A DNA stretch of 64,000 nucleotides from an uncultured delta proteobacterium (lineage in GTDB: Bacteria > Desulfobacterota > Syntrophobacteria > Syntrophobacterales > Syntrophobacteraceae), in contig CAWEZA010000054.1 of NCBI GenBank assembly GCA_963813125.1, positions 1-64,000 of the forward strand, in the 5' to 3' direction. Positions 5,468 to 25,382 of the stretch are shown piece after piece (within the stretch, counting starts at the first letter, position 1; every line of letters begins with the position of its first letter). The position numbers and the translations under genes are program-made. The notes below the pieces were generated by a model that made no database searches, was not told the origin of the DNA, and saw only the letters and a program-made list of their open reading frames with translations.

Positions 5468-6661
5468 TCACCCCTGACCGCCTTCCGTTTTTTCAATCCC
5501 ATCCCCCTCTTTGGAATTATTTTCAGGAATATTTCCAGCCCCGTTTTTTTGTTTTACCCCGCCGACAACACCAAACTTGACCAGAAATTTCGACAACTGG
5601 ACATCCACGTCCTCCAAATCCTCGCCGCTCGCGGGTTCCTCCACGGGCGCCTCGGCCTTTTTCCTTTTCTCCGCCGCCAGTCTTCCCGCCTCGGACGCGG
5701 CCCTTGCGGCAGCCCGCTCCTTCCTTGCATAATCTTTCAGGAGCGACCCCATGAGAAACTTCCAGAAAATGTCGTCGGGGTCCTGCCCGTGCCGCGCGGC
5801 GCTATTGACATGCTCGCGCACCGAATAAACGACATTTGAGCGCACAAACTCGTAATTTTTTATCATCTCGAACCGCCGCAGGAGCACGGCCAGGTCCCCC
5901 TCATTACGGTGTCTCTCGGGGATGAGTCCCACCAGGTCCACAAAATACCCCGTGACGCCGGCGGGATCACGCCGATCCCGCGCCGTGCCCGGCATACACA
6001 TCTGTCCCGATCGTTCGGCAATCCCGGGCATAAAGCTCACTTGCGAACCTCCCGTGACGCCTTTCTTCGCCGTGTCCTTAACGTTTACGTCGTTTTTATA
6101 TGCATTAGAAACGACGTAAACGTTAACGTGTTCCGGTGACGCTTCGGTGACGCTCGGCTGAGGCGTCACAAAAGCCTCCTCGCCCCCCCTTGACCTATCC
6201 CCAGAAACCCGCGCGGATAGCGCTTCCCGCCTCAAAGACAAAGCCGTGCCCGACCCGCATGTGACGCTCGGTGACGCCTCGGTGACGCTTGAAACCGGCG
6301 TCACATGAGCGTCACGCCCCGAGGCCGAGGCCTTTTCCATGCGCCTTCTTTCGCGCATTCGCCGCATGCGCTCAGTCGAGCCCCCGCGCGTGTAGCTCCG
6401 TTTCTTGAACTCACGCAGCGACCAGCACCCCTCGCGCTTTACCGCGACCTGGTGACGCTCCCATTTGCGCGTAACAGCGTCCCACCTCTCGGCCGGACAT
6501 CCCACGGCGACCCGAAGCACCTCCTCGGGCATCCCCGCGGCTTCTCCGTCCGCCTCGAGCATATGGAACCTGAGCAGCCAGTACGCCTCATCGGCCTCCA
6601 GGCTCGCGGCATACGGGCTCGAAAGCCAACCCCTGCAAAACGCGGCAGATAGTCCGGCCAC
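5468..6661 (-). CDS. Putative phage replication-associated protein with iteron-like repeats inside the coding sequence
   Basis: A 397-aa ORF with a low-complexity middle (HVTPVSSVTEASPSVT / FVTPQPSVTEASPEHVNV) encoded by repeated GTGACGC motifs. It sits in the early region between the recombination genes and the excisionase-like gene. No catalytic motif was recognised. Confidence 0.4.
   Translation of the reverse strand: MAGLSAAFCRGWLSSPYAASLEADEAYWLLRFHMLEADGEAAGMPEEVLRVAVGCPAERWDAVTRKWERHQVAVKREGCWSLREFKKRSYTRGGSTERMRRMRERRRMEKASASGRDAHVTPVSSVTEASPSVTCGSGTALSLRREALSARVSGDRSRGGEEAFVTPQPSVTEASPEHVNVYVVSNAYKNDVNVKDTAKKGVTGGSQVSFMPGIAERSGQMCMPGTARDRRDPAGVTGYFVDLVGLIPERHRNEGDLAVLLRRFEMIKNYEFVRSNVVYSVREHVNSAARHGQDPDDIFWKFLMGSLLKDYARKERAAARAASEAGRLAAEKRKKAEAPVEEPASGEDLEDVDVQLSKFLVKFGVVGGVKQKNGAGNIPENNSKEGDGIEKTEGGQG
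6054..6315. promoter_or_regulatory. Iteron array (6 direct and 3 inverted GTGACGC copies at ~10-12 bp spacing) plus a 15-bp perfect palindrome with an AT-rich spacer (6080..6124)
   Basis: Direct GGTGACGC copies lie at 6054, 6135, 6146, 6261, 6271 and 6283, and inverted GCGTCAC copies at 6163, 6298 and 6309. AACGTTTACGTCGTT-N15(TTTATATGCATTAGA)-AACGACGTAAACGTT is a perfect inverted repeat. Confidence 0.55.
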
Positions 6662-7620
6662 GCCTCCCCCCTTTCCATAAAAAAAGGTGACGCGGTTTCC
6701 CGCGCCACCTCCTCACCTACCAGTAAGCCCCGGACGCAATAGTCCCCGTTTCAGATGCGCACGAAAACCCCGCCGGGCAAAACCTCCTCGTCGGATAAAA
6801 GCCCGCGCCAAGGCACGCCTGCCCGCAATACAAAAAGGGCGCAAACCTTTCTTCGTTGTACGCCCTGGTCCATCCCCGCCGAAGCCTCTGAGACCGCAAT
6901 ACGTTTCTACCCACGATACGCATCGCCCGCTCCTCTCTGTTTCCTTGCCTCGGAAGTGTTTCTACAGTAAGATCCGCACTCAGAGCACCCAATCGATCCA
7001 GCCGGCGCCCCTGGCGCAATCAGCGCCGCCAGGGGACTGCCGGCCCCTTTCACCCGGCAGATATCCGGCACTCCCGACCGACCGCATCGCACGCAAACCA
7101 CGGCCCTCGATCCTCCCGGATCGGCCGTCCTCCATCGCGCCGCTCCACACAAGCAGCTCATCGCCATAAGTCCTCCTATCTCACAGGAATAACGGCGTTT
7201 CCCCCTACCTGCCCTTGCTTTTCGAACGGACGCCTCCCGGCCCCGCCGGCTGCGGCGTCGAGGCCGGAAAACGCCCCTAAAAGATGGGTGGCTCTATTTC
7301 CTCCACGTCCTTCTCCTTGCTCCTCCAGGTTTATGCCGGTCTCTCCCGGCCGTCACGGGGATCGCGGTGTGGGACATACCCCCGTTACTCCTTATGTGCC
7401 GCCGCGATCGGCCGAAGTGGCACAGAGCACACGGAGAGCAAAAAGCATGGGCAGGTTGGACCCTGGGTCTCAGTGCTGCGTGTTTCCATGTCTTTTCTCC
7501 CCCCGTGCCCCTGTGCCGCCGCGATCGGCTCCATCTTCGCCTGGGCGATGCTACGATGGATTCCTTCTCGATCGTCTTTCGACTAGACCGGCCCTGTAGG
7601 ATGCACCGCTAAAATCCGCC

Positions 7621-8091
7621 TTACCCTTCCCCACCATTCTCACGCGCAAACTTGAACCGAGGATCGGTCAGAAATTCGCGAAAAGACAACCCGCGAAAGA
7701 CGTCACGAACAAGAAGAAACCTCCTGTAGCGCAGCCTCGCGCGCGAGGGCCGCTTCCGTGCGACGAGAACGGCCCGGCATCGCCTACAGCTCGGAGTCCC
7801 GTTGTTAATAAGACTCATCTGCAATTGGACGGCGCGAGCGCCGCACAGACAACGCTTCCCGTCCTCATAAAGATGTGTCGTGTGATGATTCCAGAGCATT
7901 ATCAATGGAGTTCCTCCCGCGTCGCAGATCGCGGCCAGGCTGCTTTCCGGATCCGGAGCGAGAATGCGTTCGAGTTTGGGCGCGATCGCCATCGCGATCG
8001 GTGCGGACCGCCCGGGATTGCTCGGATGTCGCAGCGCGAGCTGCACGTTCGCGATCACGAAAAAAGTTCGAGCCGGCTCATGCCGAGGCAA
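7621..8091 (-). CDS. Hypothetical phage protein
   Basis: A 156-aa ORF in the phage early region. No motif was recognised. Confidence 0.3.
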   Translation of the reverse strand: MPRHEPARTFFVIANVQLALRHPSNPGRSAPIAMAIAPKLERILAPDPESSLAAICDAGGTPLIMLWNHHTTHLYEDGKRCLCGARAVQLQMSLINNGTPSCRRCRAVLVARKRPSRARLRYRRFLLVRDVFRGLSFREFLTDPRFKFARENGGEG

Positions 8092-11510: not shown

Positions 11511-11756
11511 TCAGCCCCGATCCGGTCGAGCGCGGACCTGTCCGGTACGCTCAGGATCGCCGCGAGATCCTCCAGGATCTGGATCGTAATCTGGCCGCGA
11601 GGCTCGAAGATCCGTCCCGAGGTACCGGAGAGCCACCTGGATGAGCGTCCCGGGCTCGTAGCCGAGCTTTCTCGCCATCGTGGACATCTGCAGGTCGTTA
11701 TCCAGCAGCCATATCCGCAACGCTCGTTTTGATGTTGTGCTCAAGGGGTTGCTCAT
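11511..11756 (-). CDS. Small DNA-binding protein heading the leftward early operon (Cro-like position)
   Basis: An 81-aa ORF starting MSNPL with an AAGGAG RBS. It is divergent from the XRE repressor, and a degraded paralog exists at 17849..17944. Confidence 0.5.
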   Translation of the reverse strand: MSNPLSTTSKRALRIWLLDNDLQMSTMARKLGYEPGTLIQVALRYLGTDLRASRPDYDPDPGGSRGDPERTGQVRARPDRG

Positions 11757-11810
11757 ACTATAAACTCCTTTGTGTAGTGTTGAAGACATTATAAATCGGG
11801 ATTCCGAACA

Positions 11811-12146
11811 GTGTCAACAAGAAAAAGTCGTAATGTCGAACAAAAAATTGGGGCTCGCCTCCAGGCCTTCAGAAGGGAAAAAAGCTACTCGATAAGGCGA
11901 CTCAGCGAAATAACTGGGATAGCCGCTTCAACGCTTTCCGAAATCGAGACGGAAAAATATGAACCTGGAGCGCAAAAGCTTCAAGATCTCGTTCGTAAAA
12001 CCGATCTGAATGCACTCTGGCTGCTGACAGGCGAGGGGGAAATGCTCAGGTCGGCGATCCAGGCGCAGGCCGCCCCGGTGTCCGAGGAGGAAAGGGCGCT
12101 CGCCGATCTCCTCTCCGAGGGCCAAAGCTGTCCTGGTGTCCGATGA
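11811..12146 (+). CDS. XRE-family HTH transcriptional regulator (CI/Cro-type)
   Basis: IGARLQAFRREKSYSIRRLSEITGIAASTLSEIE is an XRE HTH. The gene is divergent from the 11511 gene across a 54-bp intergenic region. Confidence 0.7.
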   Translation: MSTRKSRNVEQKIGARLQAFRREKSYSIRRLSEITGIAASTLSEIETEKYEPGAQKLQDLVRKTDLNALWLLTGEGEMLRSAIQAQAAPVSEEERALADLLSEGQSCPGVR

Positions 12147-12321
12147 CGACGTCATCGCGACGGCCCTGCGCTCCAACATCATCGCCTTCCACAAGGCGAT
12201 CATGGACACGAAGCGCGCGCACCTCACCGCCGAGGCCCAAAACGCCCGCCTCGAAGCCCTGGAAAAAAAGATGGGGGACGCTCCAAAGAAGCAAAATACT
12301 GGTACAGAAGGGGAAATGTAG
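12136..12321 (+). CDS. Hypothetical small phage protein
   Basis: A 61-aa ORF overlapping the end of the regulator gene. Confidence 0.3.
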   Translation: MSDDDVIATALRSNIIAFHKAIMDTKRAHLTAEAQNARLEALEKKMGDAPKKQNTGTEGEM

Positions 12322-12385
12322 TCTATGCAACGTTCGGTAAATTCGGAAGCCAGGTGCGTGCGAATACTTTTAAAAACACAAACTC

Positions 12386-14030
12386 GTGAAACAGCGCCTC
12401 AATGAAACAAATGAAAGGAGGAGGGGGCAAATCCCCGCCGGCGACAAAATGATCCGTCTCATGAAAAATGCGTCATACGAGGTGCAAGCGCTTTTTGAGT
12501 GGATCGAATACATCCTGGAGGCGCGCAAAAACAAAAAGAGCGGAAAACCGCCGCCAATCCGGGCAGGCAGGGAGTATCGCGAGGCGCTCAAAGCCATCAA
12601 TGATGGCGAACCGATTATATTCGTATCGGGAAGGGCTGGAACGGGCAAGACGTGCTTGATCGAATTTCTTCAGAAAAAACTCTCCCAACGAAACATTGCG
12701 ATCGTTGCGCCAGCCGGAGTCGCCGCCCTTAACTTGCCGCGGGCGCACGATACACTCCTTCTTTCGATTCAGCCGCGATATCGACCTCAAAAGAATACAG
12801 ACGGTCAAGAACAAAAAACAAAGGCTACAATATGAAAAGCTCGATCTGCTCATCGTAGATGAAGTCTCCATGGTGCGAGCGGACTTTGATGGACGCTATG
12901 GTGAAATTCCTCGAACTCAATGGGAGGCAGCCCGGCGCTTCGTTCGGCGGCGTTCAGGTGGTCCTGATCGGCGATCTTTTACAGCTTCCACCCGTCGTAA
13001 AATGGAAGAATAAGCTTGACAAGGAAAAGTTTGATAAGAAAAACGGGGTGTACGCCAGCAGGTACTTTTTCGGCGCAAAATTTTTGGAGGGTTCAAAGGA
13101 GAGTCCAACACCCTACTTCATAGAGCTTAAGCAAAATCGACGACAGAAAGACCGTAAATTCCGAGAGTGCCTTGATAGCATACGGATCGCGGAAGGCCAC
13201 ACCGAGGCAGTCGAGACAATCAACGCGAGTTGCCACCGAAGGGACAACCCGGACGGAAGCACTCTCGTTCTGACATACACCAGGAAAGATGCCGCGAGAA
13301 TTAATAACGATAAAATCCATGAGTTGGCCAAGCCCCGACAACCGGCGCTATTTCAGGCACAAACAGGAGGCAAATCCCGCTGCAGGACGACAATGAGGGA
13401 GACGAAGAGAACAGACACCCATATTGTCCCGCACCGAGGGAGCTAAAGCTCGCAAAGGGGGCGCCGATCATGTTTATTCTAAACGATAAAGACGGAAAAT
13501 GGGTCAACGGCACCCTGGGAGTGGTCGAATCAGTCCCAAGCGACTTTGGCCCTCCGATCGTCGTAGTGCTAAAGGACCGCCCCACGGTGAAGATAGAGGT
13601 TGAACCTGAAACATGGTGGTTTGACAAAGAATACTCCCCCATTGAACCCGAAGACAGTGAAAAGTTTGATACCTATAAACAGTATCCAATCATGCTGGCA
13701 TGGGCCGTTACAATACATAAGGCCCAAGGCCTTACGCTAGACAGCGTCGGGATTGACCTGGGCAAGGTAAAGGATAAGGGCGACAAGGAGCAAGAAAGGG
13801 CAATCTCGGAGAAAGGTCTATTGTATGTGGCTCTCAGCCGCTGCAGGTCCCTCGCTGGCATAAAACTGGAGAACAAGATCAAGGACTCGGATATCAAGGC
13901 AAGCGAGGAGGCATGTGAGTATTACTGCAAGCTCAGGGCTTACCAATCACAGCGATCCGCCCGATTTAAGCCCTACTGTCCCCCCTCTGCCAAGGCTCAT
14001 CGCGTGAAGGACTCGCCGATAAATCTCAGG
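12386..14030 (+). pseudogene. PIF1/RecD-like helicase disrupted by three frameshifts (ORFs 12386.., 12696.., 12859.., 13470..)
   Basis: Walker A GRAGTGKT, Walker B LLIVDEVSMV, GGVQVVLIGDLLQLPPV and the C-terminal AVTIHKAQGLTLD...YVALSRCR motifs fall in four different frames (2, 0, 1, 0). Confidence 0.75.
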
Positions 14031-14037
14031 CGTTCGG

Positions 14038-14207
14038 TGAATGTACAAGCCGCGAAAGCAAGGAGGCGATTCTCTGAAATTATCGAGCGGGCGGGCTGCG
14101 GACGAGAGCGCATTGTCCTGACAAGGCGAGGCAAGCCGCGCGCAGTCCTCGTATCGATCGAGGATCTCAAGTTACTCGAAGATCGTGTTGACAGTGATAA
14201 TGAATGA
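14038..14207 (+). CDS. Phd/YefM-like antitoxin N-terminal domain (possibly truncated, orphan)
   Basis: RFSEIIERAGCGRERIVLTRRGKPRAVLVSIEDLKLLED matches the Phd/YefM core (ITRRGKPVAVLVS). It reads in frame with the helicase tail, and a GTG start at 14038 was assumed. Confidence 0.4.
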
Positions 14208-14351
14208 AATCCCCGAAAGGGAAGGGCGGCCGCAGGCGATCCGCACCCCGGCCCCGGCCCCCTTGACGCCGGCATCCGGAAAGTGTACCGTTGAATACAC
14301 ATTGCAGTGTGATCGGAACGCGCGGCGGACCATCAAAGGGAAGGATTGCCA

Positions 14352-14624
14352 ATGCTTAGTGTGCAACTCGATGAAGGCCTCGAAAAAAGATTCGAGCAAC
14401 TCTGCGCGGCGGTCAAAAGAGACCGGGAAGACTGCCTGCGCGAGGCGATCGAGCAGTATATGGAGGACCTGGAGGATATCATCGTCGCGACCAGGCGGCT
14501 AAATGACGATGATGCCGAAACCTCTGAAATTATGGCGGATGCCGGCCTGATGGAATCGATCCGAGAGGGCAGGGACCAGGCAAGACAAAGGATCGGCCGA
14601 CGCATTGAAGAAATCGACGTCTGA
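14352..14624 (+). CDS. Ribbon-helix-helix antitoxin (RelB/ParD/CopG-like)
   Basis: MLSVQLDEGLEKRFEQLCAAVKRDREDCLREAIEQYMEDLED is an RHH fold signature. The stop overlaps the toxin's start (ATGA). Confidence 0.7.
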   Translation: MLSVQLDEGLEKRFEQLCAAVKRDREDCLREAIEQYMEDLEDIIVATRRLNDDDAETSEIMADAGLMESIREGRDQARQRIGRRIEEIDV

Positions 14625-14923
14625 TGGATTGGGCGGTTTACTTCACGGAAGAAGCCCGCAAATTGCTCCTGCGCATTGAGGACAGACGCGTTCGGGCGCT
14701 CATCAAGTCGAGGGCCTTGCGTTTGAGCGCAAGTCCCCGCACGCAGGGTAAAGCGCTTGGCGGAGAACTTTCCGGCTTAAGAAGCGTGCGAGCCGCCGGG
14801 CAGCGTTACCGAATCATCTATGAAGTGTTTCCCGAAACAGGCGAAGTGTGGGTTGTGGCATTGGGCATACGCAAAGCGGGCAGCCGCGATGACGCGTATG
14901 AACTGGCGAAGCATTTGCGTTAA
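14624..14923 (+). CDS. RelE/ParE-family toxin
   Basis: A 99-aa protein. RYRIIYEVFPETGEVWVVALGIRKAGSRDDAY matches the RelE/ParE C-terminal pattern (riiYrv..e...v.vl.igh.rk..Y). Confidence 0.75.
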   Translation: MDWAVYFTEEARKLLLRIEDRRVRALIKSRALRLSASPRTQGKALGGELSGLRSVRAAGQRYRIIYEVFPETGEVWVVALGIRKAGSRDDAYELAKHLR

Positions 14924-14946
14924 ACCCTTTTAGATCGCCCGGCTCC

Positions 14947-16218
14947 TCAAACCGGCCCCTCCGCCTCCCCACGCTCCACAGTCTGCCCCGCGCCCTCCGC
15001 GATCTCTCCTATCGCCGTTCCCTCCGGAGTGGACAGCATGGCCTGCAGGGCCATGGCGGCGTTGCGCTTCTGGTCCGGGCAAAGATGCGCGTATCTCTCC
15101 GTCTGCTCGATCTTGCCGTGCCCCATCAGCTCCTTTATCGTCTGAAGGCTAGCTCCCGATATCGCAAGCCAGCTCCCGAAGGTGTGCCGCAGGGAATGGA
15201 AAACGAGCTTGTGCCGCCTGTCCCTGACTCCGGCGTTTAGCCCCAGGTCCTCGACGGCTTTGAAAAAACTCCCGGAAACGCTTTTTATCTTCTTTCCGCC
15301 GCGGTCGGTGAAGACGTGTTCGTCCGGGCGGCCGCCCTCGGCGAAGACAACGGCCAGCTCGTCGGTCATGTACGCCTTCCGCGCGAGATCCCCCTTCGGC
15401 CCCCGCGAGTAGTCCGGCCCGAGGATGTGGATCGTCCTGTCTTTGACATCGACGTCGGCCCACCGGAGGTTCCAGATTTCTCCGGCGCGCATGCCCGTGT
15501 GAAGCCCCACGAGGCAAATTTCGTAAAGTCTCTGGCTGTACATCTGGACGCGCTGCAGCAAAAGGTGCGCCTCGCTTCGGCTAAGATATCTCAGCCTGTT
15601 CGTGTGCCGGGTGCTGGGGAACTTAATCCCCCGGGTAGGGTTTTCCCCGTGAAAGTCACCCCACGCGATCGCCTTGTTGATCACTTCGCGGGCAAGTCCC
15701 AGGACGTGCTTTATCGTTTGCGGGGAAAGCTTCTGCTTTGTGAGACCGCTCTTTATCCGCTCGAAGTGAAACGGGCTTATCTCCGAGAGCGCGAGATGCC
15801 CCAGGGCGTCCTTGAGATGCTTCTCATATCTCACCTTATCATCCCCGAAGCTGCGCCGGTTCACCTGCGCCCACTCGTAAAACTTCTCCCACGCCTCGGA
15901 AAAGGGCAGCTCCTTTTTCTCCCCGGGCAGCTCCTCTCCGTGCCTCATGGCCCGGATTCTCTCCGCGCGGATGTGCCCGGCCATCTGCGGCGTATAGCCC
16001 TCGCTCTGCCACCCGATCTTTTCCCACTTGAGCTTTCCGGCCCGCGTCTTGTAGCAGATGTCGTAGCACTTGTCGGGCTTTCCCAAATGCCTCCTCACCG
16101 CCGACTCCCGGACAAACACCCCGGTCCTGTGAGTCTTTTGCCTCGTCCCCGCCGCCTTGACCTCTCCAGCCTCTTTCACCGGCGCTCCCTTCCTTCGAAA
16201 AAAAATCGCACCCGTCAC
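14947..16218 (-). CDS. int: Tyrosine-type site-specific integrase
   Basis: The C-terminal catalytic region HSLRHTFGSWLAISGASLQTIKELMGHGKIEQTERYAHL gives the R...H-x-x-R...Y signature. The gene is adjacent to a tRNA 3' fragment. Confidence 0.9.
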   Translation of the reverse strand: MTGAIFFRRKGAPVKEAGEVKAAGTRQKTHRTGVFVRESAVRRHLGKPDKCYDICYKTRAGKLKWEKIGWQSEGYTPQMAGHIRAERIRAMRHGEELPGEKKELPFSEAWEKFYEWAQVNRRSFGDDKVRYEKHLKDALGHLALSEISPFHFERIKSGLTKQKLSPQTIKHVLGLAREVINKAIAWGDFHGENPTRGIKFPSTRHTNRLRYLSRSEAHLLLQRVQMYSQRLYEICLVGLHTGMRAGEIWNLRWADVDVKDRTIHILGPDYSRGPKGDLARKAYMTDELAVVFAEGGRPDEHVFTDRGGKKIKSVSGSFFKAVEDLGLNAGVRDRRHKLVFHSLRHTFGSWLAISGASLQTIKELMGHGKIEQTERYAHLCPDQKRNAAMALQAMLSTPEGTAIGEIAEGAGQTVERGEAEGPV

Positions 16219-16306
16219 GACCTAAAAAAAACATCCCCCGAACCCCGAAAAAAACGCCCCCGCGGGGGCGGAAAATCCGTTTTTTACACCTCGATTTTTA
16301 TCCCAG

Positions 16307-16606
16307 TAGCTAACCCTTTGCTAACCTTTTCCCCCACGTTGCCATATCCCCCCATATCCCGAGCCCCCCGCGCCAAAAGGCACGACCCGCATGAAGCCTG
16401 CCTTTGCGCCCTCCCATGTCATCGGCCTGGTAAGCCGAAAGCAACGCCCCCCTCCGGAGCCCAAAAAAGCCTCCCCCCACCGGCCCGAACTTTTAAAAAA
16501 AATTCTCCAACGCCGGGACCTCGGATCCTGCCCCACCCGGCCTCCGAAATCAACTCTTTTTTGCTAACGCCTCGCTAACCTCCCGGCGATATCTCCCCAT
16601 ATCCCG
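16307..16606. repeat. Two ~50-bp imperfect direct-repeat modules (GCTAAC(C)x2 + ATATCCCC/CATATCCC) between int and the att core; candidate integrase arm-type sites
   Basis: GCTAACC lies at 16309, 16320 and 16574, and GCTAACG at 16563. (C)CATATCCC lies at 16343, 16353 and 16598. Confidence 0.45.
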
Positions 16607-16696
16607 CAATAACTCCCATCCCCCCGAACCACCCCCGAATCGGCCATCCACCCCCATTCCCCACCCCTCCCCGCATCCCGCCATACCCCCCGCACC

Positions 16697-16742
16697 ACGG
16701 CCTTTCACGCCGACGACACCGGTTCAAATCCGGTTGGGGACG
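16697..16742 (+). other. tRNA-Glu(UUC) 3' fragment (anticodon arm to acceptor 3' strand), probable att core/attR
   Basis: CGGC-CTTTCAC-GCCG forms an anticodon stem-loop with U33 and anticodon TTC. A T-arm ACCGG-TTCAAAT-CCGGT is followed by TGGGGACG, matching E. coli tRNA-Glu CUUUCAC...GGGGACGCCA. No D-arm or 5' acceptor strand is present upstream. Confidence 0.7.
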
Positions 16743-16753
16743 CTAGTAAGATC

Positions 16754-16791
16754 AAGGGGTTAAGCTGAGAAGCTTGACCCCTTTTTCTTTT
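16754..16791 (+). terminator. Rho-independent terminator (13-bp stem, GAGA loop, T-tract)
   Basis: AAGGGGTTAAGCT-GAGA-AGCTTGACCCCTT followed by TTTTTCTTTT. Confidence 0.7.
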
Positions 16792-17285
16792 GGGGGGGAC
16801 TTTTCAGGATAACCGGGACCGAGCGAAGCTCAATATGCCTTCCTGACGCGACTTGTGCCCTCTGGAGTAAAAGTTTCCATGGGCGAGTATCGGGGACGAT
16901 GATTTTGCCCGTCCTCTCCATTCATATTTTGAAATCAAAGATAAAACACTCCCTTTTCGCGTCAGGCTATGTATCTTTCGCCGACTGTAATCGCGCGGGC
17001 TAAAAAATAATGCCAAATATCCCCCCAAATGAGGCCATTACCCATATCAATCTACATGATCGGTCTTATATTACACTTGGTTTTATAAACCCTTCGTCTG
17101 GAGGAGCCGAAAGTCCTTATCCCTGAATCCTTATGCCGGAAAGGAGGGACCGATTGGAGTGAAGGCGTATGGGGTCTCGAACGCGGTCGGAGACCAAGCT
17201 TGAACCAATGAAGATGTTCAAGACGGAATCCGTCCGTATAGTCAGGTCCCTGGTTTACCGAATTGCCCGGAAAGGAGTGGATAAA

Positions 17286-17585
17286 ATGAGAAAAGCATTG
17301 GTTGTCGCGATCGCTGTTTCACTGCTCCTTATCGGCGGCGGCTTTGCGACCGCACAGGCGAATGGCTCCTGCAACATCAACTGGTCCGCCCTGTCTCCCT
17401 GCAACTGGCACGCGCCCAACCTGTGCGCGTTCCATTGTGACGCGGTGGCCGCGGAGCCCACGCCTCCTGCTGCGGAAGTAACTCCACCGACGCAGGAAAA
17501 ATGTTCACTTTGCAACATCAACTGGTCCGCCCTATCTCCCTGCAACTGGCACTGGCCGCATTTTTGCCCGGTCTGTGGCAGCTAA
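17286..17585 (+). CDS. Secreted Cys-rich small protein with two near-identical tandem repeats (CNINWSALSPCNWH)
   Basis: The RBS is GGAAAGGAG. The signal peptide is MRKALVVAIAVSLLLIGGGFATAQA. The mature ~75-aa region has 10 Cys, and the two ~43-nt DNA repeats differ at one position. Confidence 0.5.
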   Translation: MRKALVVAIAVSLLLIGGGFATAQANGSCNINWSALSPCNWHAPNLCAFHCDAVAAEPTPPAAEVTPPTQEKCSLCNINWSALSPCNWHWPHFCPVCGS

Positions 17586-17848
17586 GTCGGCGTGGGATGC
17601 TGAATTGAAGGGGGGTGACAATGCAGATTGAAACGTCGGACTTCCTTCCGATAAAACACCGGAAGGAAGTCCTGTTTTTGTGCCGTCCCGGCTTTATCGG
17701 GCCTGTAATAGAGAATGCTCCCCGCCCCGCCCATAACACACCCCGGCTATATCATTCGAGTACGGAGCTGTCCGGTACGCTCAGGATTGCCGCCAGGTCC
17801 TCGGCCGTCCCTATGTGTCGGCCCGGCATCCGGCAGCGGGTCCCCGGT

Positions 17849-17944
17849 TCACAGCCGAGCTTTTTCGCGATCGCAGATAGCTGCAGAGCGTTCCGGCAGC
17901 CACATCGGCAGCACTCGTTTTGATGTTGTGCGCAGATGGTTGCT
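17849..17944 (-). pseudogene. Degraded paralog of the 11511..11756 prophage gene (MSNHLRTTSKRVLPMW..., then out of frame)
   Basis: Nucleotide similarity to 11700-11760 extends through the RBS and start (aaactcctt...atgagcaac...caaaacgag). Indels break the frame after ~30 codons. Confidence 0.55.
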
Positions 17945-17974
17945 CATATATAAACTCCTTAGCGTCGAAGCGCC

Positions 17975-18607
17975 GTGATTATGTTTGGCGAAATTCCTCG
18001 AAATTCCGAACAGGGGAGGGTGGCCGTGAGCGATCCCGCAAAAAAGCCTGCAACCTATGAAGACCTTTACGACATCCCCGAAAACATGATCGGGGAGATC
18101 GTTGACGGGGAGTTGACCGTAACACACAGGCCCACGAGGGAACACGGTTATGCGGCAACGACATTGATTGAAGAGGTCGGACCGCCATATCATCGCGGGC
18201 GTGGCGGACCGGGGGGATGGATCTTTATCGTAGAACCCGAGATTATCTTCGGCGAGGACGTCCTGGTGCCCGATGTGGCGGGATGGAAGGCGCAAAGATT
18301 CATATGGGAAGAGGATCGAAATCCCATCTCGGTCGCACCCGATTGGGTGTGCGAGGTCCTCTCGCCAAAGACCATCCGCAATGACAAAGTAAGAAAAATG
18401 CCCGTTTATGCCCGCCATGGCGTTGGACATATCTGGCTTATCGATCCCGCCGCCATGACGATGGACGCCTTCCGGCTCGAATCGGGCGGATGGTTCTTGC
18501 TGGCGAGCTTTTCAGAAAACGACAAGGCGCGGGTAGAGCCGTTCCAGGAGATTGAAATAAATCTCGACTATTTGTGGGCCGAAAGCTCGAAGCCTCCAAT
18601 ACCATGA
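17975..18607 (+). CDS. Uma2-family (DUF820) putative endonuclease
   Basis: YEDLYDIPENMIGEIVDGEL...PDWVCEVLSPKT are Uma2 signatures. The true start may be an internal GTG near 18024. Confidence 0.75.
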   Translation: MIMFGEIPRNSEQGRVAVSDPAKKPATYEDLYDIPENMIGEIVDGELTVTHRPTREHGYAATTLIEEVGPPYHRGRGGPGGWIFIVEPEIIFGEDVLVPDVAGWKAQRFIWEEDRNPISVAPDWVCEVLSPKTIRNDKVRKMPVYARHGVGHIWLIDPAAMTMDAFRLESGGWFLLASFSENDKARVEPFQEIEINLDYLWAESSKPPIP

Positions 18608-19472: not shown

Positions 19473-20027
19473 TCAGATCAGCATGATGATATCGACGATC
19501 ACCAAACCCGGAATGGCAACCAGAGCTAAATAATCTAGAAAAGCGCTCATCCAGCCTAAACGCTGAATCCAAAGCCCGCCGAGTATTCCGGCTCCATATC
19601 CGGGGAAAAGGCCTGCGAATCCGCAGAGCATCAGCTTCCACCCGGAGTGTGAAAAGCCGAGCCTGCCAAGCATCAAACCGGCGGTTACTCCCAGAAAAAC
19701 AAGAAATAGAAATATCTCTACCCTGAAGGATTCATACGTTGGAGGCGTGCCTGCCGACGATACGATGCTGTTGATAAGTAGGGCGACAAAAACGGCGCTC
19801 CCCAGGATGCCGAATATCCACCCGGAGATCGAGCCTTTCTCGCAGGCCGCCGTAAATCCCCACACGGCGGCGCCCACGGAAAGAAAGGTGACTATCGTGA
19901 ATTCCAAAGGGAGATGGCCGGCAAAAGGCGATCGGTATTTTTCCTCGCTCGGCCTTACGCGTCTCCACAGAAGGGAGGGGAAGAATTTAAGATGAAAATC
20001 AAAGGAGAGAAACTTCGGTGGGTTCAT
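19473..20027 (-). CDS. Hypothetical integral membrane protein
   Basis: A 184-aa ORF with ~5 hydrophobic helices. Confidence 0.45.
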   Translation of the reverse strand: MNPPKFLSFDFHLKFFPSLLWRRVRPSEEKYRSPFAGHLPLEFTIVTFLSVGAAVWGFTAACEKGSISGWIFGILGSAVFVALLINSIVSSAGTPPTYESFRVEIFLFLVFLGVTAGLMLGRLGFSHSGWKLMLCGFAGLFPGYGAGILGGLWIQRLGWMSAFLDYLALVAIPGLVIVDIIMLI

Positions 20028-20252
20028 ATGATCACGGATTCGATGGTATTTTGTTTATCGTCCATAAAGCCTCATTATATCGATACAAGTTTATTCCAAT
20101 TTGAAGTTCCGGGCAAATAGATTCCGGAGCAGGCCGGAGGGCGGATATCGCACCAACCGCGTTTGCGTGGTGCTCTTCGTTTTAGCGGGTACGGGGCGCC
20201 GTCGTATACCTGGACTGGGTACGCAGCCTGTGTTGCATCGTAAAACTTCATG

Positions 20253-20281
20253 TTGACTAATGCGCCTGCTTTCTTTAGTAT
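20253..20281 (+). promoter_or_regulatory. Sigma70-like promoter (TTGACT-N17-TAGTAT) upstream of the precursor peptide gene
   Basis: The -35 TTGACT is at 20253-20258, the spacer is 17 nt, and the -10 TAGTAT is at 20276-20281, ~65 nt upstream of the ATG. Confidence 0.55.
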
Positions 20282-20348
20282 TGTCAGGCGATTATGGTAT
20301 GGCGTGTGTGCTGTTATTTAAGGAAATTACAACAAAGAGGGAGACTTC

Positions 20349-20510
20349 ATGGAGATTAAAGAAAGAAGCGAAAGCGCGGGCGGGAACATGGTCCTCGAAA
20401 GCGAGTCTTACACTGTGATGTCTCTATGCGCCGGCTTGGCCGTTGCTGAGGTCGGCGACGGAAACTGTTTCTCCTGTGAAGGCTATATCACGGTTCCCTG
20501 CAGTTGCTGA
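20349..20510 (+). CDS. RiPP-like precursor peptide (53 aa, 5 Cys in the C-terminal half)
   Basis: The RBS is AAGAGGGAG, 5-8 nt before the ATG. The peptide is MEIKERSESAGGNMVLESESYTVMSLCAGLAVAEVGDGNCFSCEGYITVPCSC. It sits immediately upstream of two rSAM/SPASM genes. Confidence 0.6.
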   Translation: MEIKERSESAGGNMVLESESYTVMSLCAGLAVAEVGDGNCFSCEGYITVPCSC

Positions 20511-20632
20511 CGCCATGTAACGCAGTACCCGACCGATCTCCGGCAGGGCGGGATTGGGATGCCGTGCTGTTTGCTCTTCGAGCATGAGCAAGGCGCCATA
20601 TTTCATTACCAGAGCTGAGTAAGTGCACGGTC

Positions 20633-20676
20633 GGCGTGAGTCCTTCCAGTGTGGAGGACTCACGCCATCTCTTTTT
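20633..20676 (+). terminator. Intrinsic terminator/attenuator between the precursor and maturase genes
   Basis: GGCGTGAGTCCT-loop(TCCAGTGTGG)-AGGACTCACGCC followed by ATCTCTTTTT. Confidence 0.6.
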
Positions 20677-20785
20677 GCGTCTCCGATGGATTATCTCCAC
20701 GTATTCTCCGTCCGCTGCCTCAGGTAAATAAGAATAAAGGAAAGAAGAAACGGATTCTCACGGCCCCCTCGAGGTTACGAAGAAT

Positions 20786-22228
20786 TTGATAGAGTTGGAA
20801 CGCGGCGGCGATGAGTTGCTGCTTGTGAACTCTTTCCACATGCTTCCGCTATACGTGGCTCGCGGCAAAAAGGGTGTGAAGCGCGTACTCTCACAGGTCG
20901 GGGGCAAAACGTTTGAAGAGCTCCTGGCCTTATTCTCCGGGGACACGGACCTCATCCGAATGCTCAGGGACCATCGCATCCTTGTCGATTCCTCCCGCGA
21001 GAAGGAGCGGTGTGAGCGCACGGGCATCGACGCGGCTTTAGCCGCGCCACCTCTGCCCAAGAACAAGATGACCGTTTTCCTCCTGATTACTGAATCATGC
21101 AACCTTGGTTGTGTATATTGCCTTAACGGCTCGGGGACTTATCGCAAAAGCCCGGGCGCGCTCATGAGCCCCCAGGTCGCCATGCGCAGCATCACGGCGT
21201 GCCTGGATCAACTTGGCGCCGGCGGCACCCTTCAAGTGACCTTCTTTGGGGGCGAACCGCTCCTTAATTGGCCCCTTGTAAAAGAGGTGATAAAGCAATG
21301 CGAGCAATTACCCGGGCAGACGTATGGCGACAAGAAGATTGCATATCATATAACCAGCAATCTGACCACATGCCCTCCCGATCTGATCGAAACGCTAAAA
21401 AAGCATAAAATCACCGTCTTATCCGATATCGACGGGCCCCCGGAAATTCATAACCGTTGCCGTCCCTTTCTGCGCGGCGGAGCTTCTTATGCCCGGAGTG
21501 CGGAAACTATACGCAGGTTGGTAGACGCCGGAATACCGGTAGCTCTGCGCGCTACGCTTACTTCCGTCAATCAGGACTGCGTCGCTGATATTGCCGCCCA
21601 CCACAAGGCGCTCGGCGCCGGTAATTGCGGCCTTGTGCCGGTCTGCCAAATCAATTCCGATCGGCAATACCTGCCTGAGTGGCTTCTGCCCGATCCGGAC
21701 AGGATTATCGCCGGGGTGGTGAATGTATATCGCAGTGGATTATGGGAAAGGACGAAGCTCTTCCCGTTCAACCAATATGTTTTGAAATTGCGTCCCGGCT
21801 CGCGGCAGACTGTGGGCTGCGCGGCTCCCTCGGGCGCCGTTCCGGTCATCAACGCCAACGGAGACGTTTACCTGTGCGCCTATCTTGTCGGCCAGGAGAA
21901 GTTCCGCTATGGAACGTCGTCAAACGCATGGGACCGGCGGTTGCTCGAAGAAACGTCGGCCTCACTGCATGTCGATAATCTCCCGGGGTGTAGCGCATGT
22001 CCCTGGCGATACGCGTGCGGAGGTGGATGCCCGGTGATGAGACTGGGGTTTTACGAAGTGGAAAAAAACCCTGTGGCCGCGGAATATGGACGGAGAATCG
22101 TCTGCGATTTTAGCAGGGCAGTTTTGACCGAGTGTCTTTGGGACGTGGCGGACAATGTGTCGGCCTCCATTGCCGAGGGGCGGGGGCAACACCGTGGACC
22201 GGCGCTCGACCCAACGCTTTTTTGCTGA
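20786..22228 (+). CDS. Radical SAM/SPASM-domain peptide-modifying enzyme with an N-terminal RRE-like domain (paralog 1)
   Basis: The CX3CX2C motif is SCNLGCVYC. The C-terminal SPASM cysteines are CAAPSGAVPVINANGDVYLCAYL...GCSACPWRYACGGGCPVM. The N-terminal ~90 aa (LERGGDELLLVNSFHMLPLYV...TFEELLALF...ILVD) is PqqD/RRE-like. The only canonical start is a TTG with a GAGGT SD. Confidence 0.85.
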   Translation: MIELERGGDELLLVNSFHMLPLYVARGKKGVKRVLSQVGGKTFEELLALFSGDTDLIRMLRDHRILVDSSREKERCERTGIDAALAAPPLPKNKMTVFLLITESCNLGCVYCLNGSGTYRKSPGALMSPQVAMRSITACLDQLGAGGTLQVTFFGGEPLLNWPLVKEVIKQCEQLPGQTYGDKKIAYHITSNLTTCPPDLIETLKKHKITVLSDIDGPPEIHNRCRPFLRGGASYARSAETIRRLVDAGIPVALRATLTSVNQDCVADIAAHHKALGAGNCGLVPVCQINSDRQYLPEWLLPDPDRIIAGVVNVYRSGLWERTKLFPFNQYVLKLRPGSRQTVGCAAPSGAVPVINANGDVYLCAYLVGQEKFRYGTSSNAWDRRLLEETSASLHVDNLPGCSACPWRYACGGGCPVMRLGFYEVEKNPVAAEYGRRIVCDFSRAVLTECLWDVADNVSASIAEGRGQHRGPALDPTLFC

Positions 22229-22274
22229 AACAAAAGAGGAGTTCCCCTTCTCGGACTCTGCATCGGGGTACCCC

Positions 22275-23714
22275 ATGAGGGCTCAAGTGTTGCTCGAATT
22301 GACCAAAAACCTGATCTCCCTGGAAAGGGGCCGCGACGAGTTGCTCCTGGCAAACTCGTTCCACATGATGCCTCTATATGTTAAGCGGGGCAGGGAGCGT
22401 ATAAAGGGCGTGCTCGACCATGCATCCGGCGGACGCACGGCAGAAGAGTTGGAAGCGGCATTTCCGGGGGATGTCGGCCTCATCGAGCTCCTTCGCGATA
22501 ATCGCATTTTGGTCGACAAGTCATTTTACCCCGACGGGTTCGATCTCGCAGATATCGCGGCGGAAAAGATCCAGTCCGGCCCCCGGGAGAGGATCACGCT
22601 TTATCTGCTGCTTGGCGAATCCTGCAACCTGGACTGCATCTACTGCCTGAACGGACCCAAGACATACCGGAAAAATCACGCAGAGGGGATGGGCGCGCGG
22701 ACTGCCCTGAGAAGCATCGAGAAATGCCTGGAGGAACTCGTTCCCGGAGGCGTGGTGGAAGTCGGTTTTTTCGGGGGCGAGCCTTTACTTCACTGGCCGG
22801 TGGTCAAGCAGGTGATAAGCCGTTGCGAAAGTGAGATCGGGCCGGCAAACCCCGATAAAAAAATACGATATCACCTTACCAGCAATCTGACACTGTGTCC
22901 ACCAGACCTGGTCGAATGGGTGACACGCTACAAGATTACAATAGTCTGCGGGATCGACGGTCCACCGGAGATTCACGACCGATGCCGGGTCTACCGCGGA
23001 GGCGCCCCGTCTCATGCGCGCAGCGCGGACACTATACGCCGGCTTGTGCAGGCCGGAGTACACCCCACCTTGAGGGCAACGATCACTTCAGCCAACCATG
23101 ACCGGTTGCACGAAGTAGCTGCGCACCACACCCTGCTTGGAGCCGCCGCCTCGCTGTTTATCCCGGTACGCCCCATTAATTCGGACAGCGAGTTTTTCCC
23201 GGAACAGATCCTGCCCGACCCGGAAAAAATCATTTGCGCCGCAGTCGAACTCGGTCTCGGCGATTCTTCGGGCAAGGCAAACCTATTTCCCTTCAATGAT
23301 TTTTCAGCCGATTTACGCCCCGGCGCCCGATATGTAGTCGCCTGCGGCGCTCCCCGGGGGGCCACTTACGTGGTGCGGCCCAACGGCGACATTTATCCCT
23401 GCATCTATCTCGTCGGCCAGAAACAGTACAGGCTCGGAAATGTGACCGGCATGCTGGATCGTAGGCCCCTTGAAGAAATGTTTACCGCTTTACACGTGGA
23501 TAACCGCGAAGATTGCCGGACTTGCGCCTGGCGGTATGCTTGCGGCGGCGGCTGCCCGGTCATGAATCTTGCGCGCATAGGCGGCGCCGAGAAGAGCGCC
23601 CGTGTGGTGGAGTACAGCCGCAGGATCACCTGCGACCTGAGCCGGGCGATCCTTTCCGACGCCCTCTGGCGTCTCGCCGACCGGGGCTTAAGCGGAGTTG
23701 CCGGACAAGTTTGA
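22275..23714 (+). CDS. Radical SAM/SPASM-domain peptide-modifying enzyme with an N-terminal RRE-like domain (paralog 2)
   Basis: GESCNLDCIYCLNG, CGAPRGATYVVRPNGDIYPCIYL, and CRTCAWRYACGGGCPVM. It is ~45% identical to paralog 1 over its full length. Confidence 0.85.
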   Translation: MRAQVLLELTKNLISLERGRDELLLANSFHMMPLYVKRGRERIKGVLDHASGGRTAEELEAAFPGDVGLIELLRDNRILVDKSFYPDGFDLADIAAEKIQSGPRERITLYLLLGESCNLDCIYCLNGPKTYRKNHAEGMGARTALRSIEKCLEELVPGGVVEVGFFGGEPLLHWPVVKQVISRCESEIGPANPDKKIRYHLTSNLTLCPPDLVEWVTRYKITIVCGIDGPPEIHDRCRVYRGGAPSHARSADTIRRLVQAGVHPTLRATITSANHDRLHEVAAHHTLLGAAASLFIPVRPINSDSEFFPEQILPDPEKIICAAVELGLGDSSGKANLFPFNDFSADLRPGARYVVACGAPRGATYVVRPNGDIYPCIYLVGQKQYRLGNVTGMLDRRPLEEMFTALHVDNREDCRTCAWRYACGGGCPVMNLARIGGAEKSARVVEYSRRITCDLSRAILSDALWRLADRGLSGVAGQV

Positions 23715-23847
23715 CATCGGCCGCAGCATAAACCTCTAACCTGGAACGGAAGGAGGAATTATGGGGAGCGCTTGGTAATACGAGCCCCGTCACATCATGG
23801 AAGGACGGGGCCTTTGTTCCCGCGGGACTTTTGCGGGCAGTTGAGAG

Positions 23848-25122
23848 TTACTTTCGTTTTACAGGGGCCCCTGATGCCGGCGAAGAACCTTTTAGCCATT
23901 CGCTGACGAAATCATTCAAACTTGAGGGGAGCCACCACAGCGATAAGGTGCTTGGCAGCTTGCCGTCAGTCTTTTGTCCGAAATTTCTCAGGGCATCGGC
24001 TGCGGCCAGCGCCTGAATGGTTCCCGTATAAGGGCTGAGACTCTGAGCAATGGCCTGGTCCTGGGAAGCGATGTAGCGCCGATTTATGGCGCTCTGTACT
24101 TCGGGGTCGAATTGAAAGGTATCGGCCCAACCTATGTAATCGAGGGTAACGCCGACCGAATCTAGATAAGCGGTCAGTTTTTTCTGGACATCCGCCATAA
24201 TCTGCCCCGCGGCACCATTGTCCTGGTCAAAGGTGCGGCTGGTAAACTCTTCACCGAGCAGGGCCTGCACCTTGTCCCTCACCACCCCGTCCATCACCTC
24301 CGTGAGACTGTGGCCGTAATAGACAGAGGTAAAGATTACTTCCGGTCTGGTACGGTTGCCGACTGGAGGCTTTATGCCGAAGCGATACAGAAATTTGGGG
24401 GCGTTATCTTCCGATACGGATGCAGCGATGGAAACGCCGACTGTGATGTTTAGCCCCTCTTTGCTCTGCACGGGAAAACCTTCGTTTCTGCTGGAAGTCC
24501 CACGGTTTGATTCGGTAACCCACTCACGGTTATACGGTGTGCGGTCGACAATAATCAGACGTCCACCCGGAACATAGTAGTCCTTCCAAAAAGCTGAGTT
24601 TTCCAGTTTGACGTGAGGAATGACGAATCGCTTGGCCGCGATTTTATGTTCCCGCAGATATTCCTCCGATTGGAACGAGGCCTGGCCGTTTTTGTTGTTC
24701 CCCACATCGGGAATAAAGAAGGCCGACTCATTCGGAAGAATAAAGAACGGCTCGGCGTAATCGGACTGGTTGTAGTAGGCATAGCAGGAGGTGCTCGCCG
24801 TGAGTACGGTCAGCAGCACCAGCGGGACCAGACCCGACTTGATGAAAGACCGCAGCGGTTTCCACCAGATCAGAGCAATGATGGCCAAAAGAACAAGAGC
24901 CGGGACACCGAGGTGTTTGAAGAAATCCATTCCAAACTGCGACGTGACATAGGCCATGTCGCTGTTCTCGAACTGTTTGGCGGCCATCTTACCCGCACCC
25001 AGAAGGGCCATAGAGTTGAGAAGGTAGTTGATCCAACCGTAAATCATAATGGATGCCACGGTAAGAACCCCGCGTATGATATAACCGCGGCCTCCATTGT
25101 TCTCCAAATCATCAAAACCCAT
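23848..25122 (-). CDS. SPFH/band-7-like membrane protein
   Basis: The RBS is AAAAGGAGAAAA. There are ~3 N-terminal TM helices. The C-terminal region VRDKVQALLGEEFTSRT...VTLDYIGWADTFQFDPEVQSAINRRYIASQDQ fits an SPFH domain pattern. Confidence 0.55.
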   Translation of the reverse strand: MGFDDLENNGGRGYIIRGVLTVASIMIYGWINYLLNSMALLGAGKMAAKQFENSDMAYVTSQFGMDFFKHLGVPALVLLAIIALIWWKPLRSFIKSGLVPLVLLTVLTASTSCYAYYNQSDYAEPFFILPNESAFFIPDVGNNKNGQASFQSEEYLREHKIAAKRFVIPHVKLENSAFWKDYYVPGGRLIIVDRTPYNREWVTESNRGTSSRNEGFPVQSKEGLNITVGVSIAASVSEDNAPKFLYRFGIKPPVGNRTRPEVIFTSVYYGHSLTEVMDGVVRDKVQALLGEEFTSRTFDQDNGAAGQIMADVQKKLTAYLDSVGVTLDYIGWADTFQFDPEVQSAINRRYIASQDQAIAQSLSPYTGTIQALAAADALRNFGQKTDGKLPSTLSLWWLPSSLNDFVSEWLKGSSPASGAPVKRK

Positions 25123-25382
25123 GCTTTTTTCTCCTTTTATTGAGCAGTCCAATCTAATTGGCTCGAAAATAAACAAATCGCTACTCCTTATAAATTCGGA
25201 TGGTACTCGCCATCATATCAATAAAATAAATGGATCCGCTCTTCCTTCTTCATGCCAATCCCTAATCCGTGAGTAAAATCCACGAGGGTCACTGAAAATC
25301 CCCAGGTGAGAGCAGGGGAGTAGCCTGCCAAGGGTTTAGGCATAGTGATCCAGTGGTTCACCGAGGGGGGAAGGCCCCGAAG

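Follow-up and report, generated by a model that had tools for sequence, protein, structure and literature searches.

A conserved cysteine-rich peptide gene beside paired radical-SAM/SPASM enzymes as the probable precursor of an undescribed RiPP family

A short, cysteine-rich open reading frame (ORF) from an uncultured Syntrophobacteraceae bacterium is quite probably the precursor gene for a family of radical-SAM (rSAM)-modified RiPPs not described before. The ORF lies in a 64,000-nucleotide stretch of contig CAWEZA010000054.1 (hereafter the window), beside two rSAM/SPASM enzyme genes, and it is very likely that one or both of these adjacent enzymes modify the peptide. By analogy with characterized systems, Cys-thioether cross-linking of the ranthipeptide or sactipeptide kind is a somewhat favored form of that modification. 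Sequence comparisons indicate a discrete, rare precursor family with clear invariant positions and a conserved maturase pair, which we regard as a putative new precursor-plus-maturase family among the rSAM/SPASM-modified Cys-rich RiPPs, apparently SCIFF/ranthipeptide-like in its working.

Results

The peptide ORF is supported as a translated gene

The putative peptide gene, its expression signals, and its two conserved blocks are as follows.

20253..20281, + strand: candidate sigma-70-like promoter (TTGACT-17 nt-TAGTAT); the peptide ATG follows ~68 nt downstream
20337..20343, + strand: Shine-Dalgarno sequence GAGGGAG, 5 nt before the peptide ATG
20349..20510, + strand: putative precursor peptide gene, 53 aa plus stop, of a conserved family under purifying selection, adjoining orthologous rSAM/SPASM genes
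20388..20438, + strand: conserved N-terminal block, residues 14-30 (MVLESESYTVMSLCAGL), including Cys27 (alignments A3 and A4)
20457..20507, + strand: conserved Cys-rich C-terminal core, residues 37-53 (DGNCFSCEGYITVPCSC), with invariant C40, C43, P50, C51, and C53

The ORF translates as MEIKERSESAGGNMVLESESYTVMSLCAGLAVAEVGDGNCFSCEGYITVPCSC followed by a stop, identical to the product in the original prediction. Its five Cys (residues 27, 40, 43, 51, and 53), the CxxC at 40-43, the CxC at 51-53, and the GDGN at residues 36-39 are all present as described there, and the AGGGAG-type ribosome-binding site proposed for it corresponds to the GAGGGAG listed above. The promoter candidate, which may drive the peptide gene, was the sole promoter-like match in the 4.1 kb scanned (19900-24000), and its -35 element is partially conserved at the orthologous locus L001. 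In a census of all ATG-started ORFs of 40-80 aa in the six frames of the window (n = 196), this ORF alone had at least five Cys within its last 27 residues, and it was among just 20 with a Shine-Dalgarno-like motif. As the sole Cys-rich outlier among 196, it does not look like a chance product of base composition. Public collections (NCBI, ENA, Logan) already list the peptide (P0001) among their called proteins.

Comparative data agree with the earlier claim that the ORF is a translated precursor for the adjacent rSAM enzymes: about 55 homologues exist, and in every locus that could be read the peptide lies beside orthologues of the same rSAM genes. Both checks proposed with that claim, conservation of the reading frame at related loci and codon-level selection, came out in its favor. 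In the DNA alignment of the window with L001 (A1), the ORF is free of indels and both flanks contain them, and the frame is kept at related loci generally. Of 11 pairwise comparisons, 10 gave a dN/dS of 0.12-0.44; dS reached ~2, and the amino-acid pattern is kept down to 32-38% identity despite saturated synonymous change. Each of the 11 family loci examined has an ATG with GGAG or GGAGG 5-9 nt ahead of it.

The original prediction had itself raised the possibility that the region is an untranslated leader of the rSAM operon. A fortuitous, untranslated ORF within leader or attenuator RNA could account for the strong hairpin and the 275-nt gap that separate the ORF from rSAM1, and for the 5' UTR in L001, the sole close relative, being no less conserved than the ORF itself. 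Such an RNA would not be expected to preserve an amino-acid pattern under purifying selection at the divergence given above, nor the positions of the Shine-Dalgarno sequence, ATG, and stop. Furthermore, the peptide gene is divergent from the rSAM genes in L092 (3555-3731, - strand), L093 (429-605, - strand), and L097 (7001-7177), and a gene on the opposite strand cannot be the operon's 5' leader. A search of 19900-21000 against Rfam (E <= 1) returned no family besides one spurious lncRNA match, and a riboswitch or untranslated leader was rejected on this result together with the comparative data. We therefore consider the untranslated reading effectively refuted at the level of sequence comparison, with a negligible chance of being correct, and we treat 20349-20510 as a genuine, conserved, and apparently translated gene. 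The divergent transcription in L092, L093, and L097 also means that peptide and enzymes need not form one operon.

A rare peptide family with two conserved blocks

Clustered at 50% identity, the related peptides make up just 13 groups, and an exhaustive HMMER scan of 1.84 billion representative proteins revealed no distant relatives in any known family. A profile of 11 peptides recovered 47 clusters at 90% identity, all 52-73 aa in length except for a 34-aa fragment (P0167); every cluster is unnamed or annotated as 'hypothetical', and none contains a Pfam domain. The window peptide and 10 relatives had no match in Pfam or NCBIfam, two spurious ones aside in the NCBIfam search of the 11 family peptides at E <= 10. 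Motif strings of the peptide (e.g., YTTVPC, TVPCSC) occurred in none of 8 million full texts. Literature searches on ranthipeptides, SPASM, and Syntrophobacter likewise gave no description of the family, although an unnamed listing in the supplements of large surveys (e.g., PMC10288494) could still exist. Contig scans returned mostly SCIFF maturases and about nine family loci from genome contigs, and five loci from metagenomes. By MAG labels, the family occurs in Syntrophobacteraceae, Deltaproteobacteria, Planctomycetes, Alphaproteobacteria, and Methylocystis. The nearest homologues that indicated the host taxon came from a Syntrophobacteraceae MAG (76% identity).

The family consensus is ..VLExExYTVxSLCxxL.., followed by an acidic linker that usually holds an aromatic residue and by CCxCPxYTTVPCSC-stop, or more broadly C(C)xxCPxYTTVPCxC-stop. 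In window numbering, L26, C40, C43, P50, C51, and C53 are invariant, while E17, S25, L30, Y46, and T48 are at least 90% conserved. CxC-stop is the exact end of every member but one (P0172), which runs beyond the usual terminus as ..PCSCCCSPVS. Residues 14-30 presumably act as the RRE recognition (leader) motif and residues 37-53 as the modification site. Two details of the original prediction do not fit this pattern. Its proposed cut between leader and core (..YTVM-SLC..) falls inside the most conserved block, and the Asp of GDGN, offered as a thioether acceptor, is not a conserved column in the family alignment; under the PapB/QhpD rule (PMC12373016), the only possible donor for this Asp37 would be Cys27.

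The window peptide is a member of a small divergent branch (P0001, P0002, and P0170) with five Cys, a shorter linker, and the common core NCFxCEGYITVPCxC. This branch departs from the consensus in having Asn for one Cys of the CC pair, Glu for Pro44, and Ile for Thr47. P0001 and P0002 are also missing a linker segment of four residues, the one in which the aromatic residue lies. P0002, which is 85% identical to the window peptide, comes from an unrelated contig (L001). In the closest six-Cys relatives (L088-L091), the linker reads (M/L)W(S/T)DGSCC.

Other members vary in different ways. In the subfamily ..E(T/D)C(T/I/M)V(I/L)SLS.. (L084, L085, and L095), the leader-block Cys sits at the Tyr21 position instead of in SLC, the Y to C and C to S changes occurring together, and the linker has an extra Cys. 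Two further profile matches, P0175 and P0176, are repeat proteins of 1,200-1,300 aa that we rejected as relatives, judging their similarity to the leader block to be due to chance. P0175, the one of the two that was inspected, has a repeated strand motif, VLEGDETFAVSLS, and its repeats presumably resemble the Calx-beta type, as judged by eye. These weak matches agree with the leader block being strand-forming.

Two complete-looking enzymes with predicted RRE-like domains

20786..22228, + strand: rSAM1 (maturase 1), 480 aa, TTG start, with a predicted RRE-like N-domain, CxxxCxxC, and seven SPASM Cys
22275..23714, + strand: rSAM2 (maturase 2), 479 aa from the ATG at 22275, which homology supports; the ORF is open from 22155

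Along their full length the two enzymes share 52% identity, with all cluster-binding Cys conserved between them. Pfam Radical_SAM matches both, SPASM/TIGR04085 matches rSAM2, and the CxxxCxxC motif with a seven-Cys SPASM extension places them in the rSAM/SPASM superfamily. C105/C109/C112 together with C345, C364, C402, C405, C411, C415, and C440 do not vary among the 17 aligned homologues, which include both paralogue types. These residues in rSAM1 match, almost number for number, the ligands of the radical-SAM cluster (104/108/111), AC1 (344/362/413), and AC2 (400/403/409/432) of CteB (PMC10177961). CteB is also the closest solved structure by sequence (5WGG, E = 1e-23) and the best fold match of an AF2 model of rSAM1 (pLDDT 83, pTM 0.86), a full-length match with 473 aligned columns including the N-domain (TM 0.69/0.74). 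With their cluster Cys invariant and aligned with the CteB ligands, both paralogues look catalytically complete. In the modeled N-domain of rSAM1 (pLDDT ~86), strands span residues 2-6, 10-14, and 22-24, and helices span 28-36, 43-49, and 51-62; this PqqD-like topology of three strands and three helices suggests that the rSAM1 N-terminus is an RRE-like domain, and the model and fold match point to such a domain in both maturases.

Neither enzyme resembles a curated maturase family closely. For rSAM1/rSAM2, the NCBIfam models scored 155.2/161.7 bits for PapB (NF047865; cut-off 340), 149/157 bits for the nif11-type maturase (cut-off 519), 130.5/144.5 bits for the SCIFF maturase (cut-off 425), and 129.9/137.7 bits for QhpD (TIGR03906; cut-off 453), with the sactisynthase models lower still (RumMC 73-81 bits, StsB 51-56 bits), although scores of this kind do not decide chemistry. 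No known maturase family could be assigned: its cut-off was reached neither by the window enzymes nor by seven homologues across the wider clade, and family homologues scored 148-182 bits against the PapB model, under the cut-off of 340. Since the enzymes fall far below every curated cut-off, different chemistry is possible.

This distance bears on whether the peptide, as a true rSAM substrate, might be modified by something other than thioether formation, for example MftC-like C-terminal oxidative decarboxylation or cross-linking, a C-C or C-O cross-link at Tyr46, epimerization, or anSME-like Cys oxidation. The curated thioether families (PapB, SCIFF, and QhpD) all have cut-offs that the enzymes miss, SPASM enzymes perform many reaction types (PMC10114670), and the near-universal CxC-stop end with conserved Y46, T48, and P50 would suit chemistry directed at the C-terminus or at Tyr. 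Nevertheless, the best neighbors by sequence and fold are all Cys-thioether synthases, and four to seven Cys are the dominant conserved feature of the peptide. Moreover, the three-Cys AC1, which touches a substrate Cys in CteB (PMC10177961), is conserved here. We consequently regard non-thioether chemistry as unlikely and thioether cross-linking as the better candidate, while any assignment to the ranthipeptide or sactipeptide class would rest on the enzymes' nearest relatives.

Peptide and enzymes form a minimal cassette at unrelated loci

19473-20027, strand opposite to the cassette: 184-aa membrane protein, the upstream-side neighbor
23848-25176, strand opposite to the cassette: SPFH/Band-7 protein, the downstream-side neighbor

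Between these two neighbors lie three co-directional genes: the peptide, rSAM1, and rSAM2. L001 has entirely different flanking genes, but there too an rSAM1 orthologue (91% identity) comes after the peptide. When loci were gathered around rSAM1 homologues of 53-79% identity, a homologous peptide was found at every locus with readable upstream DNA (L003, L084, L085, and L088-L095, and later L096 and L097). The peptide thus accompanies rSAM1 orthologues in L001, L003, L084, L085, and L088-L097, among unrelated flanks and in several phyla. In L096 the same three genes, the peptide and the two enzymes, stand between cysS and DUF502, and these three make up the minimal conserved cassette. A short maturase-adjacent gene, a conserved recognition region and core, and co-inheritance with the enzymes are the general marks of a RiPP precursor, and all are found here.

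By tblastn, orthologous rSAM1 and rSAM2 pairs are present in the window, L003, L083, L085, L088, L092, L094, and L095, and gene calls add the pair in L096. The rSAM2 orthologues are 61-85% identical, so that the duplication must be older than the family's spread. rSAM1 is retained in every locus, while rSAM2 is lost or broken in three of about 12 (L001, L090, and L091) and so is not always needed. L001 keeps a remnant at 11660-11908, where the first ~56 codons (to ..TKNQISLE) persist in an 82-aa ORF; in L091, rSAM2 is split into frameshifted pieces (5487-6858); and in L090, where rSAM2 is absent, a polysaccharide deacetylase gene (5487-6266) directly follows rSAM1. These losses were independent events.

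Outgroup single rSAMs, 39-46% identical to both paralogues, are without the peptide, and no convincing precursor was found beside them, with one exception, a Cys-rich ORF with a Tat signal in L005. This 93-aa ORF (7469-7750, + strand) directly follows an outgroup rSAM that is 43% identical to rSAM1. It carries a twin-arginine signal (SRRRFLKG), and its C-terminal part is rich in Cys and Thr (CDAGCISTCVTSCTSCTTVNC). The ORF may be an example of another type of substrate, used by the sister clade.

Some loci encode a third rSAM/SPASM enzyme directly upstream of the peptide.

L088, 2592-3617: third rSAM/SPASM gene
L089, 2499-3617: third rSAM/SPASM gene
L090, 2559-3671: third rSAM/SPASM gene
L091, 2409-3521: third rSAM/SPASM gene

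As called, these proteins are 341-372 aa long and RRE-less, and their best matches are anSME, DynA, and DarE. The gene is restricted to the subfamily with the linker (M/L)W(S/T)DGSCC, and the window has neither the gene nor the aromatic segment. This co-occurrence suggests that the third enzyme may act on the aromatic residue.

ABC exporters occur in some loci only (L088, L094, and L095), and there is no conserved protease. A conserved cassette without protease or exporter leaves leader removal and export without explanation, which counts against the RiPP model. It would be more in keeping with a small, unmodified metal-binding or redox partner of the rSAM enzymes, in which CxxC...CxC knuckles hold Zn, Fe, or Cu, and the four invariant Cys in a CxxC-7-CxC arrangement would suit such a role. 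A partner of this kind is harder to reconcile with an RRE-like peptide-recognition domain in both enzymes, with two-block leader/core conservation typical of RiPP precursors (the N-terminus and linker being variable), with additional Cys that differ in number and position between subfamilies, and with the lack of matches to any metal-binding family. We consider a metal-binding partner highly improbable and retain the modified precursor as the preferred reading.

A lineage-specific insertion separates the peptide gene from rSAM1

20590..20745, + strand: lineage-specific insertion of ~155 nt between the peptide gene and rSAM1, not in L001 (alignment A1)
20633..20676, + strand: intrinsic-terminator-like hairpin inside the insertion, with a 14-bp stem including 9 G-C pairs, then ATCTCTTTTT

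Comparison of open frames shows that the insertion parts the ancestral rSAM1 ATG (~20583) from the rSAM1 body. In L001, rSAM1 is able to start at ATG (ATGAGAAGGAAAGAAGAAACGGAT), whereas the first usable start in the window is the TTG at 20786, 11 nt after GAGG. Because the insertion removed the ancestral ATG and left a TTG, expression of rSAM1 is less certain here. The insertion was also considered as a mobile repeat, and this was rejected: it recurs neither elsewhere in the window nor in any locus fetched.

The hairpin has a minimum free energy of -28.7 kcal/mol (z = -6.0), and none of 200 shuffles folded as well. Comparable hairpins with T-runs lie 3' of the peptide gene in L003/L094 and in L085, such that an attenuator between precursor and enzymes seems recurrent. 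The hairpin is a candidate attenuator that may favor peptide mRNA over enzyme mRNA.

Mobile-looking surroundings

Just upstream of the cassette, 11811-18607 is an accessory- or mobile-looking stretch that includes the following genes; no tRNA genes were found in the window.

11811-12146: HTH regulator
13470-14207: protein with a Phd/YefM antitoxin domain
14947-16218, - strand: tyrosine integrase
17975-18607: Uma2-family endonuclease

Integrase or transposase genes are found near several cassettes, including those in the window, L092, and L094. Together with the scattered MAG taxa, these nearby mobile genes fit a possible horizontal spread of the family.

The same stretch holds a 138-aa ORF (17169-17585, + strand), 2.8 kb upstream of the cassette, with a signal- or TM-like N-terminus (..VAIAVSLLLIGGGFATAQA) and two Cys/Trp-rich units, CNINWSALSPCNWH(A/W)P..C. 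At the DNA level, the units correspond to a 63-nt direct repeat (17370-17432 and 17511-17573, 84% identical). The ORF has no Pfam or NCBIfam match and could encode a small secreted Cys-rich repeat protein.

Discussion

The cassette most resembles SCIFF/thermocellin systems (CteA-CteB, Tte1186a-Tte1186), in which a short Cys-rich precursor likewise adjoins an RRE-rSAM-SPASM enzyme; CteB is the nearest structure by both sequence and fold, and its RS, AC1, and AC2 Cys ligands are equal to those here. CteB and Tte1186 form a Cys-Thr bridge, reported in vitro between Cys32 and Thr37 (PMC8172795), to the gamma carbon according to later work (PMC8172795, PMC10114670). The invariant Cys43 and near-invariant Thr48 of the family have the same i/i+5 spacing as Cys32-Thr37 in CteA/Tte1186a, a likeness that offers a lead and not a test. 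Nonetheless, the family differs from SCIFF in several respects: the precursor does not resemble the SCIFF model, the enzymes at 130-144 bits fall well short of the 425-bit maturase cut-off, two paralogous maturases replace the single SCIFF enzyme, and the hosts are Gram-negative anaerobes (MAGs of Syntrophobacteraceae, Planctomycetota, and Alphaproteobacteria) as opposed to Clostridia. By the SCIFF precursor and maturase models (TIGR03973/TIGR03974), neither the peptide nor the enzymes belong to that family. The original prediction had noted that the Cys spacing is not that of SCIFF, a view upheld by the fact that no NCBIfam or Pfam precursor model matches the peptide.

Freyrasin (PapA-PapB) is a second point of reference, in that PapB, whose model scores best among those of NCBIfam for both enzymes, makes Cys-thioether bridges: six Cys-Asp beta bridges (PMC8172795, PMC10114670). 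The single CX3E of the window peptide (Cys40-Glu44) resembles the CX3D units of PapA. However, PapA has six CX3D repeats, while in this family an acid after the Cys is not conserved and most members have Pro at this position. PapB requires an acid C-terminal to the Cys, although a C-terminal carboxylate is also usable (PMC12373016); it joins Cys to Asp or Glu on the C-terminal side, and the conserved core here has no such acid. With no repeated CX3D in the peptide and enzyme scores well short of 340 bits, the cassette lies outside the PapB family (NF047865).

QhpD, a homologous rSAM/SPASM enzyme, forms Cys-Glu/Asp bridges (PMC8172795, PMC10114670) at spacings of 5-8 residues (PMC8172795), which resemble the spacing of Cys27 to Glu34 or Asp37 in the window peptide. 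Yet no qhp genes lie nearby, and the substrate here is a free peptide of 53 aa, whereas QhpC is an enzyme subunit. Membership of the QhpD family (TIGR03906) calls for 453 bits or more and for a qhp operon context; the window enzymes score far less, and their neighbors are the membrane protein and the SPFH protein.

Two rSAM/SPASM enzymes encoded beside their peptide are also known from thuricin CD (TrnC/TrnD) and from HxsB/HxsC. TrnC and TrnD are active only as a complex (PMC12093266), which provides a model for the paired paralogues here. Thuricin CD, in contrast, has two precursors and sactionine (C-alpha) bridges, and the present cassette has one precursor, maturases that are 52% identical and both apparently RRE-like, and an rSAM2 that is dispensable in some lineages. 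The resemblance to HxsB is also limited, the window enzymes scoring only 97 bits against a cut-off of 370.

In the model that we favor, in which we infer the chemistry, cleavage site, and function of the peptide product, the peptide gene would be transcribed and translated from its own promoter and Shine-Dalgarno sequence, with the hairpin and T-run probably letting just a fraction of transcripts extend into the pair of enzyme genes. The VLExExYTVxSLCxxL block would then serve as a leader bound by the RRE-like N-domain of both maturases. By alignment and fold, each maturase carries a radical-SAM cluster and two SPASM auxiliary clusters in a CteB-like Cys arrangement. On the pattern of CteB/Tte1186, PapB, and QhpD, the two maturases may abstract a hydrogen atom from an acceptor residue, which would be joined to the sulfur of C40, C43, C51, and C53, plus C27, to give a compact thioether-bridged peptide. 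The two paralogues might install different bridges or act as a TrnC/TrnD-like complex. The acceptor is difficult to guess from the alignment: the PapB/QhpD rule of a Cys donor followed by an Asp or Glu acceptor is not conserved in the family core, and Glu44 is Pro in most members. The Cys40-X3-Glu44 unit, the Cys43/Thr48 spacing, and the CxC-COOH end are potential leads for acceptor choice and not results.

A bolder possibility, which we hold to be improbable but worth stating, is that the family represents a new RiPP class, with a new cross-link topology on the C(C)xxCPxYTTVPCxC-COOH end, an obligate paralogue pair, and a product that stays intracellular. Bridges to Tyr46, Thr48, or the C-terminal residue, of neither the PapB nor the CteB type, would be examples. 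The intracellular product follows from the absence of a protease or exporter in the conserved cassette.

Much new cross-linking chemistry and many stable macrocyclic peptide scaffolds come from peptide-acting radical-SAM/SPASM enzymes, a main source of both. Neither the peptide nor its enzymes are named by any model in Pfam or in NCBIfam release 20. This is one more rSAM RiPP candidate among many that have been genome-mined, and its value will depend on the chemistry found. The family nevertheless contains natural experiments that make the roles of single enzymes testable: lineages without rSAM2, the Trp/Tyr subfamily with a third rSAM, and the five-Cys, short-linker branch to which the window peptide belongs.
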